Below are positions 641 to 7,392 of a stretch of 29,045 bases of DNA, one piece after another. Both the position numbers and the translations under genes were made by a program. This stretch comes from a virus (taxonomy: Duplodnaviria; Heunggongvirae; Uroviricota; Caudoviricetes): IMG/VR virus record IMGVR_UViG_2778261464_000005; one strand, given 5' to 3'. Below the pieces are notes generated by a model that was not told the origin of the DNA, did no database searches, and was given only the letters and a program-made list of their open reading frames with translations. Within the stretch, counting starts at the first letter, position 1. The number at the start of each line of letters is the position of its first letter.

Positions 641-1830
641 AGCTCAGACCTGATCTGACAGTTACCGGTTATTTATACAGGTATCTGTCAGATTACATCT
701 GGCTTAAATTTTTCTCGGCCCAGATGCGCTTTCCATCAAGTAACGTTTCCATTGGCGTCCGCCCATTGCACATTTTTCCCTGATGGGTTCGCTCATTATT
801 ATAGTGAGCCAGCCATTCATCAAGATCCGACTGTAATGTATCAAGATCGCCGTACAGTTTTTTACGGAACGTTACCTGATAAAATTCGTTCAGGATTGTT
901 TTATGGAACCGCTCGCAGATGCCGTTGGTCTGCGGGGACATCGCCTTTGTTTTCGTGTGTTCTACATCGTTTATTGCCAGATAAAGCTGATAATCATGCT
1001 GCTCTACTTTGCCACAGTACTCCGTGCCTCTGTCGGTCAGTATTCTCAGTATCGGCAGGCCCTGAGACGCATAAAACGGCAGTACACGATCATTCAGTAA
1101 GTCAGCCGCGGTAATCGGTGTTTTGGTGACGTAAAGCTTACAGTGAGCCACTTTCGAGTACGTATCAACGAACGTCTGCTGATAAATACGCCCGGCACCT
1201 TTCAGGTTGCCTACATAGAACGTGTCCTGCGAACCCAGATATCCCGGATGAGCCGTTTCGATTTCGCCACAGGCCTCGTCATCACTGGCTTTACGCTCCA
1301 GTGCTGCGATCTGGCTGTCAGTTAACTCAATGCCATCACGGGCTACTTTTTCTTCCAGTGCTTTCGGACGTTTTTTGAAATTCTCAAGGTTATGGCGTAA
1401 CCAGACAGAATGGACACCACTGCCGGAGATAAAAACGCCCTGTTTACGCAGCTCGTTGCTGCGTCCGGTGCTGACTGTGTGCCGGGAAAGCGACGGCGTA
1501 ATCAACAACAGCCTGTTCAGTTGCCTCATCGGTACGGTTCTTAAGGTTAGGAGCGCGGCGACTACGATTAATCAGCGCATCCACACCACCTTCATCGACC
1601 AGTTCGCGGTAACGATAAAACGTATCACGCGAAACGCCCATGATTTTACAGGCTTTTGATACGTTGCTGAGTTCTTCAGCCAGATTGAGCAAACCGGTTT
1701 TGTGTTTGATAACGGGATTGGTAGTATGAAGCATGAGAGTTACCTCGTGTTTTGTATAAGGATTCGACACCCATATCAAAACCGGTAACTCTCAACCTTT
1801 CAAGGCTCAGTGTCAGATCAAGTCGCGACT
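641..1830 (-). mobile_element. IS481-family (YagA-like) insertion sequence, about 1.2 kb, between the left-edge ORF and the 3' end of int
   Basis: Encloses the HTH + rve/DDE transposase ORFs. Ends share TGATCTGACA (about 651-660; reverse complement at about 1811-1820) and GTTACCGGTT (about 661-670; reverse complement at about 1781-1790), but the right end has about 20 extra bp between the two blocks, so the terminal inverted repeats are asymmetric. Boundaries approximate. Confidence 0.55.
693..1779 (-). pseudogene. IS481-family transposase (HTH + rve integrase core, YagA-like), split by a frameshift into two overlapping ORFs
   Basis: ORF 1444..1779 (111 aa) has the N-terminal HTH (SKACKIMGVSRDTFYRYRELVDEGG) and ends ...AFPAHSQHRT; ORF 693..1529 (278 aa) has the DDE/rve core (TDRGTEYCG ... 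SPQTNGICERFHKT). Together about 380 aa, the size of one IS481-type transposase. IS481-family transposases are normally a single ORF, so the split reads as a disrupting frameshift rather than a programmed one. Confidence 0.7.
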
Positions 1831-1845
1831 AATACATGTAAATAT

Positions 1846-2976
1846 TCATATTGTTAAAGTTACCCAATTTTTTCCGCGGAGATCGTTATAACGATCAGTT
1901 TGTTGCTGGGTTTTATGTCCCAGCAATTTCTGAGTATCTATTCCCTGTTCTTTGTATAGCCTTTCTGACAATGAACGTTGCTCATGAAAGGTTGCTGGGG
2001 TTCCTTCACCCCAATCAATTTCAGCCAGATCCCTTGCTTTGCTAAAATTCATAGTCAGAGTATTAGCTTTTACTTGTGCCCCACGTTCTGCCTGTGAAGT
2101 TGATCTGAAAAAATGTACTAAGTATGGACTATCTACATAGTCACGGCAGCGAGCTACAACATCGCGCAGGCTCCAGTTGATTACATTCAAACGAAGAGAA
2201 AGAGGAATGGCTATTTTGCTGCCGGTTTTTTCCTGTTCGATATGCAGATGATCATCCCAGATATCGCTGAATTTCATTTTGGATATATCTCCCAAACGTT
2301 GGCCAGTAACCAGCGCTAACAGCATGGCATTTCCCATGTAACGATGAGTGGAGTCTGCGATATCAAAAATTTTTTGCCATTCTTCCAGGCTGAGGCGTTG
2401 ACGGGTGATTTTCCTTCTGGGTTGCTTCGTCGCAAGAGCAGGGTTATACCCTGGTGGAACTTCGCCATAATGCTGTGCTTCCTTAAACACATCGATTAAT
2501 ACAGACCTTACGACTTGGGCCATTCTAGGCTGTCCAGCTGTAATATACTCATCAAGCAATTGTGCTATATCTCTGACATCAACGGATGAGATCAACTTCA
2601 TTCCTGCTCGTTCTCTGAGCAAGGATACTGGTTTGGCTTTTTGCTTATAGGTATTGAGTCTTATATCACCACTTTTGAGCCTATCATCCTGGATCGCTTG
2701 ATAGCGATCTAACCAGGTTGACGTTGTGATCGCTTTTCCTTTGCAGGTTGCGATCCTGTCACTGATAGCCAGAATCTGTCGGGTTCTTTGTTCAGCCAGG
2801 CGTGTATTGGCTTCAGTGGCAATAGCGATGGCTTCAGCTTCGTTAGTTCCCAACGCATGAAATTTCCCTGTTACTGGATGCTTATACCGCCAATAGACTT
2901 TATTTACCTTCCTACTATAAAGCGGATATAAGTTAGGTACTGAAACATTATTCTTACGCGGTCTGGCTGCCATCAC
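1846..2976 (-). CDS. int: Lambda-family tyrosine integrase
   Basis: 376 aa with N-terminal arm-binding-type region (NLYPLYSRKVNKVYWRYKHPVTGKFHALG) and C-terminal catalytic region (FHEQRSLSERLYKEQ...LLGHKTQQQTDRYNDLRGKNW) colinear with lambda Int as I recall it. Overlapping xis immediately upstream on the same strand. Confidence 0.9.
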   Translation of the reverse strand: MMAARPRKNNVSVPNLYPLYSRKVNKVYWRYKHPVTGKFHALGTNEAEAIAIATEANTRLAEQRTRQILAISDRIATCKGKAITTSTWLDRYQAIQDDRLKSGDIRLNTYKQKAKPVSLLRERAGMKLISSVDVRDIAQLLDEYITAGQPRMAQVVRSVLIDVFKEAQHYGEVPPGYNPALATKQPRRKITRQRLSLEEWQKIFDIADSTHRYMGNAMLLALVTGQRLGDISKMKFSDIWDDHLHIEQEKTGSKIAIPLSLRLNVINWSLRDVVARCRDYVDSPYLVHFFRSTSQAERGAQVKANTLTMNFSKARDLAEIDWGEGTPATFHEQRSLSERLYKEQGIDTQKLLGHKTQQQTDRYNDLRGKNWVTLTI

Positions 2977-3199
2977 TCAAGATCCGTTGCAAAAGTAATG
3001 AGTCATTTTTCTTGATTACTGGTGTTACCAACTCCCCAACTAACTCAGCGTCCTCACGCACTCGCCATAACCGACCTTGTTTCATGGCCGGTGGGCAAAA
3101 TAAATTCTGCTTAGCATAACGACGCAATGTGGACACACTTGGAGGATTACTTCTGTATTTTTCAGAGGCCCATTCTTCAAGAGTTAACATTTGAAGCAT
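2954..3199 (-). CDS. xis: Excisionase (lambda Xis-like)
   Basis: 81 aa, MLTLEEWASEKYRSNPPSVSTLRRYAKQNLFCPPAMKQGRLWRVRED resembles the lambda Xis winged-helix N-terminus. Overlaps the int start by 23 nt, the classic xis-int arrangement. True start may be the internal Met at about 3190. Confidence 0.75.
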   Translation of the reverse strand: MLQMLTLEEWASEKYRSNPPSVSTLRRYAKQNLFCPPAMKQGRLWRVREDAELVGELVTPVIKKNDSLLLQRILSDGSQTA

Positions 3200-3272
3200 A
3201 TGCGATCACCTTGTTACTTCACTAACTGTTCAGTCTCTGCATATCGACCCTGCAAGGTCGGTTAGTTTCTCC

Positions 3273-3361
3273 ACAAAACAGAGAAGAGCACCTGTGGCCA
3301 CAACTATCAGGATGGATCGGGTTATGACCCCGTCATCCGGGGATACTCTTCTCTGTTTTGT
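3273..3361. repeat. Perfect 16-bp inverted repeat (ACAAAACAGAGAAGAG / CTCTTCTCTGTTTTGT) flanking a 57-bp spacer
   Basis: Read directly from the sequence; lies in an ORF-poor GC-rich stretch between xis and the next gene. Coordinates approximate. Confidence 0.6.
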
Positions 3362-3367
3362 AAAAAG

Positions 3368-3408
3368 GGCGGTACCAGCCGGAAGCAAGGGTACAAGCTG
3401 GTACCGCC
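3368..3408. repeat. Perfect 12-bp inverted repeat (GGCGGTACCAGC / GCTGGTACCGCC) with a 17-nt loop
   Basis: Read directly. The loop contains GGTACAAG, the same octamer as the half-site of the OR palindrome at 5230-5250. Further GC-rich stem-loops follow up to about 3560. Confidence 0.55.
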
Positions 3409-3625
3409 AAGACTACACACAGCATAAAGTTGTGGTGCCGGGTGCCTCCCGGTGCCTGGCGAAGGTTGCACACCAGGCGGGTGGGTATCCACAGAAGGTC
3501 GACTGTCAGCCTCAACCTTAACCCGCGTGCGCTGAGCCGCATTCACCACAACGCTAAGGATTCTCTCTGGTTGAAAATACTTAGCTGTTATGTGCCTGCT
3601 TTTAGCCACATCAGGCGAGGTGGAC

Positions 3626-3680
3626 CTGGTTATTCCCCAACAACAAGGATTCGGTTAATCTGGTTATCCCCAACAACGCA
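3626..3680 (+). repeat. Two copies of a ~20-bp direct repeat (CTGGTTAT(T)CCCCAACAAC) spaced ~34 bp, directly upstream of the 3693 start codon
   Basis: Read directly; the position suggests a regulator-binding or promoter element for the moron at 3693..4127. Confidence 0.5.
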
Positions 3681-3692
3681 AAAGGAAAAGAA

Positions 3693-4127
3693 ATGTCCGG
3701 TAATATCTATACGCTGTACAAATCCCACTGTGAAAATGTTGGAAAGTATCGGGGCATTGAAATCAGTGGGGTAGTGTCATCAGTCGAAATAAGCAAAGTT
3801 GAATCAAGGGCAACATTACTAACTCTTCTGGACCTTGTGTTACATGAGCACCGGAAGAAATTCGGCACTCCCTATAATCAGTTGAATGGGAAAAAGGCTC
3901 TGGTTCACCTTATTCTGATGAAGCATCACTGGATGCCAAAACAGATTAATGAGATGAAATTTGATGAACTTCTTCTTTCAATTCAGGATGAACTCACACT
4001 TGATAAAATAAGCGTAACCGCCCAGAAATTTTTAGATTATCGAGACTGGAGATCACAAATTCATCACTTTGATGATTTTGACGAAAATGAATGGGATCCT
4101 AATTTGTCTGCACAATATCTAAAGTAA
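3693..4127 (+). CDS. Hypothetical protein (AT-rich moron between xis and the immunity region)
   Basis: 144-aa ORF with no recognisable motif, transcribed opposite to int/xis/cI, lower GC than neighbours, preceded by the direct repeats above. Confidence 0.55.
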   Translation: MSGNIYTLYKSHCENVGKYRGIEISGVVSSVEISKVESRATLLTLLDLVLHEHRKKFGTPYNQLNGKKALVHLILMKHHWMPKQINEMKFDELLLSIQDELTLDKISVTAQKFLDYRDWRSQIHHFDDFDENEWDPNLSAQYLK

Positions 4128-4305
4128 CATCCTGTGATAAAACCGTGATTTCCTGATCCAGTTTTTTTAAGGAGTCTATTGTTTCCTGTCGATAAGACAG
4201 CACTTCACGAAGCTGGTTTATAGCTGCCAGCTTCTTTGTCATCCACTCATAAATTTCCTCATCTGTGTAGTCAGGCGCGACGATTTTGGGTTCTGTTTTG
4301 TGCAT
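4099..4305 (-). CDS. Small hypothetical protein (68 aa), first gene of the leftward early transcript
   Basis: Internal ATG at 4305 preceded by GAGGAGG (spacing ~6). Its 3' end overlaps the 3' end of the convergent 3693..4127 gene by 29 nt. No arginine-rich N-like motif. Confidence 0.45.
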   Translation of the reverse strand: MHKTEPKIVAPDYTDEEIYEWMTKKLAAINQLREVLSYRQETIDSLKKLDQEITVLSQDVTLDIVQTN

Positions 4306-4363
4306 TTCACACCTCCTCAAGTTATCAGTTACTTGTTGATGGGGACCAGATTGTTAAAGAGCT

Positions 4364-4388
4364 AAGCGTCCTGTAGGGCGCTTTTTTG
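4364..4388 (+). terminator. Putative intrinsic terminator (hairpin AAGCGTCC-TGTA-GGGCGCTT followed by T6)
   Basis: Stem with one G:T wobble plus TTTTTTG run, read directly. It could stop plus-strand transcription from the 3693 moron before the immunity region. Confidence 0.45.
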
Positions 4389-4454: not shown

Positions 4455-4500
4455 GTTGTTTTTCTTGGGTACATTATGTATCTCAAAGGTACATTGTCAA
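4455..4500. promoter_or_regulatory. Putative leftward operator/promoter region (OL/PL-like) carrying two GGTACA half-sites
   Basis: GGGTACATTATGTA and AGGTACATTGTCAAG share the GGTACA core with the OR palindrome. Sits between the cI terminator and the leftward small gene. Confidence 0.35.
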
Positions 4501-4539: not shown

Positions 4540-5214
4540 TTAGGCTTTGATTTTGTATCTTCTTGGTTTTCCTGAGAAAATCACAGTACCAATTATAGAG
4601 CAATTACCGTTGATCTTAATGTAAGGCTCAGGCCAGTTTGGGTTTAACGCTTTGAGATAACGCTGTGTCCCATCTTCTATCAACCTTTTGAAGGTGGTTT
4701 CACCTGTATCGTGCATCAATGCAATAACGTCGTCACCGTGGCAGGCAGGTACTTCAGGATCGACAAAAATCATGTCTCCCGGGCGGTACTCATCAATCAT
4801 TGAATCACCTATCACCCGCAAGATATAAGTCATTTCCCCACAGGGTACAGGGCAGGGATACGTTTCTGCTGTGCTCAAATCAACCTCAGAATATCCAACT
4901 TCTTTCCATGCTCCGGCCTGTACCCATGATATGACAGGGACTAATGTGATTTGTTTATTAGTGATTGAAACATCAGGTTTTTTTGTGATGTTCGTTGTCT
5001 GGTGTTCTTGATCGAGCCATCCGACAGGCAGGTCGAAACATTTTTCGATGTGTCGTGCCATGCTGTCACCGATATTTTTAGTAGCACCATCTCCCATAAA
5101 CCTGCTGGTTTGGGTTGGCTCGCGATCAATCATAGTGGCAAAGGAAGAATTCCCGCCAACACCATCTCTCAGTTTTCTGGCGTTAGACCGCCGGATGTCA
5201 TGGATTGTTTTCAT
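4540..5214 (-). CDS. cI: CI-type prophage repressor (N-terminal HTH + C-terminal S24 LexA-like autopeptidase)
   Basis: 224 aa. The C-terminal segment VIGDSMIDEYRPGDMIFVDPE...FKRLIEDG...LKALNPNWP matches the S24 peptidase motif of lambda CI/LexA. Divergent from the Cro-like gene across an operator-bearing intergenic region. Confidence 0.85.
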   Translation of the reverse strand: MKTIHDIRRSNARKLRDGVGGNSSFATMIDREPTQTSRFMGDGATKNIGDSMARHIEKCFDLPVGWLDQEHQTTNITKKPDVSITNKQITLVPVISWVQAGAWKEVGYSEVDLSTAETYPCPVPCGEMTYILRVIGDSMIDEYRPGDMIFVDPEVPACHGDDVIALMHDTGETTFKRLIEDGTQRYLKALNPNWPEPYIKINGNCSIIGTVIFSGKPRRYKIKA

Positions 5215-5229
5215 AACGAAATTAAAACC

Positions 5230-5250
5230 CTTGTACCGTTAAGGTACAAG
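5230..5250. promoter_or_regulatory. OR-like operator: perfect palindrome CTTGTACC-GTTAA-GGTACAAG in the cI/cro intergenic region
   Basis: 8-bp arms with a 5-bp spacer, read directly. A candidate PR follows (TTGAAG at ~5255, TAATAT at ~5277), and another GGTACA lies at ~5293. Confidence 0.55.
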
Positions 5251-5304
5251 TATCTTGAAGGTTCATTTTAATCATGTAATATGTATATTGGAGGTACATA
5301 TTGT

Positions 5305-5505
5305 ATGAAAGCGTATTGGGACTCTTTAACCAAAGAACAGCAGGGCGAGTTGGCCGGAAAAGTTGGCTCAACACCTGGCTACTTACGGCTGGTTTTCAAT
5401 GGCTATAAAAAAGCCAGTTTTGTGCTGGCTAAAAAACTTGAGCAATGCACGTCAGGTGCAATTACGAAATCTGACTTAAGACCGGATATCTATCCGAAAG
5501 ATTAG
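5305..5505 (+). CDS. cro: Cro/YdaS-like HTH regulator
   Basis: Start taken at the internal ATG 5305 (MKAYWDSLTKEQQGELAGKVGSTPGYLRLVFNGYKKAS...), preceded by GGAGG ~9 nt upstream. Small HTH protein divergent from cI. Confidence 0.7.
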   Translation: MKAYWDSLTKEQQGELAGKVGSTPGYLRLVFNGYKKASFVLAKKLEQCTSGAITKSDLRPDIYPKD

Positions 5506-6106: not shown

Positions 6107-6461
6107 ACAGTTTAACAACACACTACCGTCGCTCGCAACTGATTGCGCTTCCTGTACCGGGTGGAAAAGCGAAGGTGGAATATTGCTATGCAGTGAATGT
6201 ACCAGGTGACAGGGAAATTGTAACCCACAGCTTTGCAGAGTGGGCTGTGGGTGATTTCAACCGGCAGAAGGAGACAGTCCTTTGCGACAAGTTAACCGCT
6301 GGTTCAAAGATCACTACGGAGTGCCCGTCAGAGTTATTCGTTGGGAGCCGGAAACACAACGGGTTATCTACCTCCGTGAAGGCTATGAGCATGAGTGCTT
6401 CAGCCCGCTCGAACAGTTTCGTCGTAAATTCAGGGAAATAGAGGTCGGTCATGAGCACTAA
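6103..6461 (+). pseudogene. Small gene between the CII-like and replication genes that needs a frame change to be read through
   Basis: ATG 6103 overlaps the upstream stop (ATGA). The protein-like N-terminal half is in that frame to about 6270. The protein-like C-terminal half (...[59 protein letters not shown]) is in the -1 frame, open from 6255, and ends at TAA 6459-6461 overlapping the replication gene start. The original frame continues as a Ser-rich, low-complexity tail to TAG 6441. Confidence 0.4.
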
Positions 6462-7392
6462 ATTAACCGGCTATGTATGGGATGGTTGCGCTGCGTCAGG
6501 CATGAAATTATCCAGCGTGGCAATTATGGCCCGCCTGGCTGATTTCAGTAATGACGAAGGTGTGTGCTGGCCATCAATTGAAACCATTGCCCGTCAGATT
6601 GGCGCGGGGATGAGTACCGTCAGAACGGCTATCGCACGGCTGGAAGCAGAAGGCTGGTTAACGCGTAAGGCGCGTCGCCAGGGTAACCGCAATGCGTCGA
6701 ATGTTTATCAGCTTAACGTTGCGAAGCTTCAGGCAGCGGCATTTTCTCAACTGTCAGATTCTGACCCGTCAAAATCTGACGCATCAAAATCTGACCCGTC
6801 AAAATTTGATGCGTCGAAATCTGGCAAAAAAGCGGGTTTTCACCCGTCAGAATCTGGCGGGGATCCGTCAGTAAAATCAAAACATGATCCGTCAGATAAA
6901 AAACCTTCTCGTCCGGACGCTTCGCAACCGGACACGCAGACGGCTGAACAGGATTTTTTAACTCGCCATCCTGATGCGGTTGTATTCAGCCCTAAAAAGC
7001 GCCAGTGGGGGACGCAGGATGATTTGACCTGCGCACAGTGGCTCTGGAAAAAAATCATCGCCCTGTACGAGCAGGCTGCCGAATGTGACGGCGAGGTGGT
7101 TCGTCCCAAAGAACCGAACTGGACAGCCTGGGCAAACGAAATTCGCCTGATGTGTGTACAGGATGGGCGTACTCACAAACAAATCTGCGAGATGTACAGC
7201 CGCGTCAGCCGCGATCCGTTCTGGTGCCGTAACGTGCTCAGCCCGTCGAAGCTGCGGGAAAAATGGGATGAGCTTTCCCTGCGCTTATCGCCGTCCGTCA
7301 GCACGTACACCGAAAAACGCGAGGACCCGTACTTCAAAGCCAGTTACGACAACGTGGACTACAGCCAGATCCCGGCAGGATTCAGAGGGTGA
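6451..7392 (+). CDS. Replication initiation protein (N-terminal HTH; iteron-encoded repeat linker; C-terminal Trp-rich domain)
   Basis: 313 aa. N-terminal LSSVAIMARLADFSNDEGVCWPSIETIARQIGAGMSTVRTAIARLEAEGWL is typical of phage replication-initiator HTH domains. The middle SDPSK/SDASK/SDPSK/FDASK repeats are encoded by the tandem DNA repeats. Position after cII mirrors lambda O. Confidence 0.75.
   Translation: MSTKLTGYVWDGCAASGMKLSSVAIMARLADFSNDEGVCWPSIETIARQIGAGMSTVRTAIARLEAEGWLTRKARRQGNRNASNVYQLNVAKLQAAAFSQLSDSDPSKSDASKSDPSKFDASKSGKKAGFHPSESGGDPSVKSKHDPSDKKPSRPDASQPDTQTAEQDFLTRHPDAVVFSPKKRQWGTQDDLTCAQWLWKKIIALYEQAAECDGEVVRPKEPNWTAWANEIRLMCVQDGRTHKQICEMYSRVSRDPFWCRNVLSPSKLREKWDELSLRLSPSVSTYTEKREDPYFKASYDNVDYSQIPAGFRG
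6755..6900 (+). repeat. Iteron array (probable origin of replication) inside the replication initiator gene
   Basis: Five tandem 15-bp units (TCTGACCCGTCAAAA, TCTGACGCATCAAAA, TCTGACCCGTCAAAA, TTTGATGCGTCGAAA, TCTGGC...) followed by three more CCGTCAG-containing units and an A-rich tract (GATAAAAAACC). Coordinates approximate. Confidence 0.6.

Follow-up and report, generated by a model that had tools for sequence, protein, structure and literature searches.

A divergent STnc100-family RNA in the putative early-left leader of an e14-type prophage

What is carried by the half-kilobase that separates xisE from the first moron of an e14-type prophage, where the databases place a protein, or the ruins of one? 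The question is raised by a stretch of viral DNA of 29,045 nucleotides (IMG/VR record IMGVR_UViG_2778261464_000005, Caudoviricetes), the whole of which is called here the window, and more precisely by its positions 3200-3690. The window represents a lambdoid prophage of the e14 type, integrated at icd, and a locus 99.8% identical to it is present in Escherichia coli USDA-ARS-USMARC-51408. The counterpart of the region in K-12 e14 is annotated as 'protein YmfH', and in near-identical relatives PGAP calls a hypothetical protein, frameshifted, over the stretch that corresponds to 3230-3549 on the minus strand. We propose, with a probability of about 0.55, that the region serves the leftward early operon as a non-coding leader, and that it carries an RNA of the STnc100/PasD family, released as a trans-acting small RNA (sRNA). 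The original prediction, made from the letters alone, had suggested a structured non-coding RNA, or else a site for protein binding or recombination. The first of these suggestions is borne out by a full-length match to an RNA family, by covariation of the helices and by substitutions and indels of non-coding type; the RNA, however, is on the minus strand, in the direction of xis and int, whereas it was the plus strand that had been described.

The conserved heart of the region is a core in which all 34 pairs of five helices are standard in the window:

3421-3559, minus strand: STnc100-family structured core, here named 'type B', of ~140 nt with five helices
3544-3552 with 3429-3437, minus strand: helix P1, which closes the core
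3536-3540 with 3525-3530, minus strand: helix P2, a hairpin
3513-3519 with 3462-3468, minus strand: helix S1, a pseudoknot
3471-3478 with 3454-3461, minus strand: helix S2, a hairpin
3448-3452 with 3438-3442, minus strand: helix P5, an invariant hairpin stacked beside P1

The loop of the S2 hairpin pairs with a strand located upstream, forming S1, and the whole is an H-type pseudoknot. Compensatory substitutions, which the original prediction had proposed to look for in related prophages, are found in all core helices across 129 distinct sequences: in a model-based alignment of these sequences 88% of the cells are paired and 27 of the 34 pairs change on both sides, values reached by none of 500 shuffles, while shifting the partners by one to three columns abolishes the signal. 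The pseudoknot was excluded from the model, and all six of its pairs display double changes (GC 54, AU 42 and GU 17, for example). As a MAFFT alignment misplaced the pseudoknot strand of the window, we relied on the model-based alignment together with an alignment-free test, where the duplexes formed by a sequence's own strands are compared with those formed across sequences; the outcome was matched in 0 of 5000 permutations, for S1 as for S2. The frequency of G-U pairs on the minus strand identifies it as the functional one. Selection is visible at short evolutionary distance as well. Among close variants (29 distinct sequences aligned over window positions 3240-3623, with 74 variable sites) the core varies at 9 of its 139 sites (6%), against 37-53% in the loops. 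These variants were gathered via SfV orf32, a search that returned only 100%-identical proteins, and the set is fit for a map of variability while being too shallow for covariation of the long hairpin discussed below. The GC-rich stem-loops that had been noticed as far as ~3560 are real, and they are the helices of this core; the GC content of 3301-3600 is indeed 0.547, against ~0.43-0.45 on both flanks. A tRNA-like or tmRNA-like arrangement (P1 placed on a T-arm-like P5, with a 'CACCA') was considered and set aside: ARAGORN reports nothing in 3000-4000, and the pairing of the CACCAC strand is complete and accompanied by covariation.

To which family does this core belong? The covariance-model scan that had been suggested as a check gives, in its permissive version by E-value, a match to Rfam STnc100 (RF02076) at 3359-3582 on the minus strand, with 45.2 bits and an E-value of 3.5e-8, spanning model positions 1-206 of 206, just under the cut-off of 47 bits; at the gathering threshold, Rfam has no match over the whole window. 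The blocks that are invariant in the family, GUGGUGAAU on the 5' side and ACCGGGAGGCACCCGGCACCA on the 3' side, are both unchanged on the minus strand, those common to the window and STnc100 being GGUGAAU and ACCGGGAGGCACCCGGCACCA. The syntenic regions of SfV, ST64B, phiES15, phage P1 and RCS47 likewise match STnc100, all of them below threshold. We collected the family by scanning one genome per species for an invariant 21-mer, obtaining at least 120 stretches, and built from 85 representatives a covariance model of our own, R1. This model gives 81.6 bits to the core of the window, and 72-82 bits to sequences outside its training (phage P1, RCS47, Tritos and mEp460_ev081). Submitted to the Rfam model, members of what we name type A score 55-208 bits, and of the nine type B members tested a single one passes, with 47.8 bits. 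The window element is a divergent type B member of RF02076, narrowly under the curated cut-off; the locus is, in other words, a new sub-threshold member of a known and very abundant family.

The likeness to STnc100 comprises the full-length alignment to the model, the two sequence blocks, helices P1, P2, S2 and P5, a rho-independent terminator and a location in a prophage. The differences are instructive. Helix P2 of the window is GCGGC/GC.CGC where type A has CCCCC/GG.GGG, all five pairs being compensated; the terminator hairpin resembles that of DicF; and the copy is in an early-left leader, whereas the canonical one is found downstream of stx2, in the late region. In E. coli O157, STnc100 is the RNA named EcOnc27 or sRNA103, an Hfq-bound sRNA (PMC12711010). 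PasD is also an Hfq-associated prophage sRNA, and the authors of its description place PasD1 and PasD2, from enteropathogenic E. coli, in the same superfamily as STnc100 (bioRxiv 10.64898/2026.05.13.724894). The PasD RNAs are prophage-borne, intergenic and structured, as is the window RNA, but they were defined by RIL-seq and belong to the late region, close to Q and lpxR, a comparison made here by description. In the copy of the core in K-12 e14 (3721-3858 of its stretch) the P5 loop carries a deletion, and one G of the P5 stem has become A; with 64.7 bits, against 81.6 for the window, this copy may be partly decayed.

The core is set within a module, the other parts of which are the following:

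3583-3623, minus strand: the leader's conserved 5' block, CCACCUCGCCUGAUGUGGCUAAAAGCAGGCACAUAACAGC, at which the homology to other phages starts
3553-3585, minus strand: small hairpin 5' of the core (arms 3573-3585 and 3553-3565), an inverted repeat present in the centroid fold
3409-3428, minus strand: mostly unpaired linker (UUUAUGCUGUGUGUAGUCUU) between core and terminator, a candidate seed region
3360-3408, minus strand: intrinsic terminator, a 12-bp repeat GGCGGUACCAGC / GCUGGUACCGCC followed by CUUUUU (-29 kcal/mol, z-score -5.3)
3268-3366, minus strand: long leader hairpin, in which the 16-bp repeat is extended to ~25 bp by G-U pairs and by the terminator U-tract
3243-3262, minus strand: small conserved hairpin CGACC...GGUCG, the 3' end of the shared module
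3200-3239, minus strand: e14-specific junction with the xis ribosome-binding site AAGGUGA (ATG at 3199)

Two perfect inverted repeats had first drawn attention to the region, and they were correctly located: the arms of the 16-bp repeat are at 3273-3288 and 3346-3361, 57 nt apart, those of the 12-bp repeat at 3368-3379 and 3397-3408, 17 nt apart, with 100% complementarity in both cases. Both are far beyond chance, since, when 3200-3690 was shuffled 1000 times with its dinucleotides preserved, the longest perfect inverted repeat (with a loop of 3-80 nt) reached 12 nt once and 16 nt never. They correspond to the terminator of the RNA and to the leader hairpin downstream; neither of them is the conserved core, which is less conspicuous.

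The terminator coincides with the terminal hairpin of the STnc100 match. It is found at the same place in ST64B and phiES15, with stems of unrelated sequence. In the window this hairpin is reminiscent of DicF: a 1.5-kb search with the DicF model (RF00039) matches it with 24.9 bits and an E-value of 0.0088, under the cut-off of 48 bits, where a true DicF obtains 76.7 bits. The 3' hairpin GGCGGUA.CAG...CUG..CCGCCCUUUUU and the single strand that precedes it can be aligned between the two RNAs, the linker of the window falling, in the DicF model, on the 5' single-stranded arm; some SfV-type variants even have the Qin pre-dicF sequence in front of a hairpin of the window type. Both are small RNAs inside a repressor-controlled early operon. 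They differ in the loop by which DicF pairs with ftsZ, and in their order, core then hairpin in the window, DicF then core in Qin-type phages. Within the linker, 10 of the 12 sites in 3409-3420 are variable, and this variation results from module exchange.

The long hairpin folds better on the minus strand (-58.3 kcal/mol, z-score -7.3) than on the plus strand (-47.6 kcal/mol, z-score -4.9), and SfV has the same asymmetry. Its arms vary at 2 of 32 sites among the close variants, as compared with 21 of 57 (37%) in the apical part, and ST64B displays a compensatory change from G-C to A-U; this one compensatory pair and the G-U asymmetry make up the support for the fold. Because a helix this long and this regular is a typical substrate of RNase III, the hairpin is probably, by analogy, a site where read-through transcripts are processed. 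In ST64B, again, the stem at 3243-3262 has been swapped for GGCGG...CCGCC.

The 5' block is kept in K-12 e14, in SfV, in Cronobacter phiES15 and in the DicF-carrying phage mEp460_ev081, the homology to SfV and K-12 ending at window position 3623. In the functional phages SfV, mEp460 and ST64B the counterpart of the region is flanked by the repressor side and by orf32/sb37 (yfdP-like), the gene that opens the leftward early operon; yfdQ-like and yfdR-like genes follow and, further on, xis and int. As the homology to phages other than e14 stops at window position 3240, the present arrangement is the outcome of a deletion of the early-left genes in the e14 lineage, which fused the leader to xis.

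Two further features, located upstream, suggest how this leader would be transcribed:

4473-4500, minus strand: pL-like promoter TTGACA-16-CATAAT, near consensus (11 of 12 positions match), with operator-like GGTACA sites overlapping it
4350-4363, minus strand: boxA-like sequence AGCUCUUUAACAAU, after a hairpin at 4364-4383 and ~100 nt downstream of the pL-like promoter

From its sequence, the first is likely to be the early-left promoter and the source of the transcript that crosses the region. Two GGTACA sites overlap it (4468-4500), likely constituting OL/pL, and a perfect palindrome, CTTGTACC-TTAAC-GGTACAAG, located between the repressor gene and cro at 5230-5250, is likely to be OR. At 4350-4363, AGCTCTTTAACAAT is identical to the core of the rrn boxA. 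The boxA-like sequence is kept in the three closest E. coli relatives, and was not found in the stretches of K-12 e14, SfV and ST64B that were examined. BoxA is known to shield non-coding transcripts from Rho (PMC7665894), and by analogy the element could protect a long untranslated leader from Rho via Nus-factor antitermination. In K-12, azidothymidine (AZT) induces ymfH, xisE and intE in a LexA-dependent manner (PMC11228462), and ymfH-xisE-intE has been treated as a single operon (PMC12133099). Since no promoter was recognised directly upstream of the core, the RNA would arise, once SOS has been induced, from the pL transcript, an origin consistent with the response to AZT, with the treatment of the three genes as one operon and with the precedent of DicF.

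The scenario that we favour would run as follows. Once the CI-like repressor (ymfK) has been inactivated, transcription would proceed leftward from the pL-like promoter into the region, and the transcript would fold into its pseudoknotted core. Most transcripts would end at the DicF-like terminator, yielding an sRNA of ~200-260 nt that exposes its linker and ends in a U-tail, and this sRNA, by analogy with the Hfq-binding EcOnc27 and PasD and with DicF, would act in trans on host or phage messenger RNAs. Transcripts that read through would form the 25-bp hairpin, which RNase III would cut, parting the RNA from the downstream message, that is, xis-int here and yfdP-like early genes in intact relatives.

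Several observations weigh against this reading. The match to STnc100 is 1.8 bits short of the gathering score. Neither a promoter scan nor inspection by eye recognised a sigma-70 promoter directly upstream of the core, when an obvious promoter accompanies many type A copies, and the 5' end may need processing. The two sequence blocks are invariant across genera (part of this invariance stems from the search pattern with which the family was gathered), and this is typical of an RNA that binds a protein or a molecular machine, more than of an sRNA that pairs through a seed. In 13 of 20 type B relatives an open reading frame (ORF) directly follows the core, with no terminator, which suits a leader acting in cis better than a free sRNA. 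Release of a trans-acting sRNA is therefore to be taken as a best guess, and the target, the part of Hfq and that of RNase III at this locus as suggestions by analogy, while the main rival is a cis-acting leader.

That rival is possible, and we would hold it tentatively. The core would control the genes that follow it, xis-int in the present case, and the terminator would be an attenuator; it might operate through binding of a protein or ligand, through modification of RNA polymerase in the manner of the put RNA of HK022, or by stabilising or processing the messenger. In its favour are the terminator-less type B cores that stand 19-53 nt before the first ORF at the head of early-left operons. 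In Tritos and mEp460_ev081 the core is 19 nt upstream of dicB, directly after dicF (2566-2708 of each stretch; 72-77 bits with model R1, below the Rfam cut-off). In the ban operon of phage P1 it is 23 nt upstream of tciA, a TerB-like gene (2400-2538 of the P1 stretch), with a counterpart at 2496-2635 in RCS47; in Buttiauxella it is ~50 nt upstream of yfdP-like genes, and in Lelliottia it lies downstream of a CI-like repressor. Elsewhere, a type B core is found upstream of kil in phiES15. The invariance of the two sequence blocks speaks for it as well. A subgroup of type A precedes chromosomal KdgM-family porin genes, and the annotation of SfV has two putative terminators between cI and orf32, with no N-like antiterminator gene in the displayed stretch. 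Against a leader acting in cis, many family members have a promoter and a terminator of their own and no downstream gene in phase, and some are arranged in tandem arrays. The Qin-type core is located downstream of the dicF terminator, and cannot help polymerase to pass it. The prophage, moreover, already has a boxA-like element after pL.

The comparison with HK022 deserves to be made explicit. The map position is the same for putL of HK022 and nutL of lambda, where a structured RNA opens the leftward early transcript, and in the N leader of lambda the first gene is preceded by an RNase III hairpin. A boxB-like site for N is not recognised in the window. The put RNA has ~70 nt and two stem-loops (PMC9378689), as opposed to the ~140 nt and the pseudoknot of the window core. 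With its filters off, model R1 finds in HK022 19000-40751, the very paradigm of put, a best score of 7.2 bits with an E-value above 1, and this absence of a match, together with the different architecture, led us to reject homology to a put-like antiterminator.

Other copies of the family display features of their own. In Tritos and mEp460_ev081 the core fills the spacer between dicF and dicB, and its helix P1 is a perfect 16-bp duplex. DicF is excised from the transcript of an early operon, a process that involves termination together with RNase E and RNase III, the last of which generates a 3' end at 72 nt (PMC5069750); that end, 19 nt beyond the 53-nt DicF, appears from the sequence to coincide with the 16-bp P1 of the downstream core, and we offer this as a lead. 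The core of the P1 family of phages shares its operon with an annotated 'dicF-like region' and phage tRNAs. The type A subgroup mentioned above, of 142 nt, is located 70-190 nt upstream of a conserved gene for a 233-aa KdgM-family porin (Pfam E-value 6e-72) at 11 loci in Kosakonia, Klebsiella, Raoultella, Citrobacter and others, a position that suggests a leader role outside prophages. ManS/STnc500, followed up for its nanS/KdgM link, proved to be an unrelated RNA. In Superficieibacter and Enterobacter, finally, STnc100 copies form head-to-tail arrays of two to three, with a spacing of ~220-270 nt (6361-7009, 2825-3216, 1912-2308 and 3437-3792 of four stretches).

Could the annotations be right after all, and the region be a protein gene in decay? 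It would then be a frameshifted remnant of ymfH on the minus strand or a protein of the phrog_3651 type on the plus strand, with incidental hairpins. We regard this as very improbable. It has on its side, beyond the annotations already quoted, the matches of the plus-strand ORF 3294-3521 to phrog_3651 (E-value 5.6e-44) and of the minus-strand ORF 3230-3388 to phrog_33599. These families, on opposite strands of the same region, are probably artefacts of ORF calling over a conserved RNA: PHROG families are built from predicted ORFs, and a conserved RNA gene yields 'families' of this kind. The ORFs of the two strands overlap one another and run across the terminator and the hairpins, and a Pfam search of the overlapping ORFs in the region returned zero matches. 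In the 29 close variants the substitutions are without codon periodicity, whichever of the four candidate frames is taken (20/17/18, 16/15/14, 11/16/13 and 5/4/7), and the indels measure 1 and 8 nt; from this even spread of the variable sites and from these indels it follows that the region is non-coding. Relatives differ by indels of 1 nt and 20 nt, so that the reading frame is broken from one to the other, while the RNA helices covary. The observation that the region had no convincing ORF has thus stood up well. The original prediction had named, as a discovery that would refute it, that the region be what is left of a known gene; the databases do annotate it in that sense, as ymfH or as a hypothetical protein with a frameshift, and the evidence contradicts them.

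Hardly tenable, last, is a site acting at the level of DNA, where the palindromes would serve as duplex or cruciform, be it as a CI operator (through GGTACAAG), as a recombination or Xis/IHF site or as an origin-like element: the palindromes do exceed chance, the octamer GGTACAAG is indeed at 3390 within the loop of the 12-bp repeat and occurs elsewhere in the window only in the palindrome at 5230-5250, and the region adjoins xis, but chance would supply ~0.9 copies of any given 8-mer on the two strands of 29 kb, the half-site at 3390 is single and has no partner at operator spacing, when the one at 5230-5250 has CTTGTACC-N5-GGTACAAG, the loop sequence differs in other variants and in K-12 e14, whose repressor (WP_000848748.1) is the same protein as that annotated in near-identical relatives of the window, the helix extensions need G-U pairs, which are present and function on one strand only, several genes separate the module from xis and int in intact relatives, and attL is on the other side of int. 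The binding of CI in the terminator loop and the recombination site, both of which the original prediction had entertained, were abandoned on these grounds.

The setting of the leader in the window may now be given:

1846-2976, minus strand: intE
2954-3199, minus strand: xisE
3200-3690: structured region under study, between xisE and the moron
3619-3686, plus strand: imperfect 34-nt tandem duplication, immediately upstream of the moron
3693-4127, plus strand: divergent ECs1072-family moron
4099-4320, minus strand: ymfJ-like ORF
4540-5214, minus strand: repressor (ymfK, CI-like)
5281-5505, plus strand: cro

The order at the locus of USDA-ARS-USMARC-51408 is icd, an IS481-family transposase, intE, xisE, the 'hypothetical protein, frameshifted', an ECs1072-family protein, a small hypothetical protein, ymfK (a LexA-family repressor) and a cro-like gene. 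Two further near-identical genomes have the same layout, and the locus is present in 2267 of 5426 complete E. coli genomes (~40%). As in the closest relative, a frameshifted IS481-family transposase (693-1779, minus strand) is inserted in the window between the icd-side attachment region and intE, and an AT-rich ORF (78-626) lies upstream of it. The direct repeat that had been reported before the gene at 3693 does exist, and it is imperfect: 3619-3637 and 3653-3671 are 79% identical without gaps, and the shared unit CTGGTTAT(T)CCCCAACAAC, read by eye, is kept at 18 of 19 positions with one indel, at a spacing of 34 nt. The duplication accompanies the moron in other phages (matches covering query positions 41-493); it is part of the moron module, separate from the RNA, and could be a regulator binding site or the duplication of a promoter. 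In the rightward early region of mEp460, SfV and ST64B, the genes for isrK and the C4 antisense RNA are adjacent (64-84 bits with Rfam; 6160-6348, 6472-6660 and 6232-6420 of the respective stretches), and neither has a match in the window at the Rfam gathering level.

What, then, does this locus teach us about the family? A more ambitious idea, which we consider doubtful, is that the STnc100 core is not primarily a seed-pairing sRNA but a portable cis-acting RNA device, which phages and some chromosomal genes have directly before dosage-critical genes, dicB, kil, the TerB-like tciA, yfdP-like genes, xis-int and KdgM-type porins; its partner could be a conserved host protein, a small ligand or RNA polymerase itself. 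If this were true, the phenotypes of e14 'ymfH' would be RNA-mediated, and the known site at which RNase III cuts, 19 nt past the 53-nt DicF, would lie in the P1 helix of the core. One of these phenotypes has been described with an over-expressed clone of K-12 'ymfH', which triggers the toxin of retron-Sen2 (bioRxiv 10.1101/2020.06.22.160242); if the locus is non-coding, this triggering merits re-examination as an effect of RNA, and the published phenotypes of 'ymfH' at large, SOS induction as well as the retron toxin, need rereading. As far as the traceable literature shows, the covarying pseudoknot, the presence of type B at the head of early-left operons and the coincidence between the 72-nt end of DicF and P1 are new, and we put them forward as leads.

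An annotation as protein or pseudogene is corrected here into that of a conserved structured RNA, which pipelines based on Rfam have missed by less than 2 bits. The structure of the family gains a pseudoknot supported by covariation, and the range of STnc100/PasD is extended from late-region, Shiga toxin-associated loci to the heads of early-left operons, with the dicF-dicB spacer and the ban operon of phage P1 among them. In this context, a clean copy that is SOS-inducible in K-12-like backgrounds offers a convenient experimental entry to the function of the whole family.

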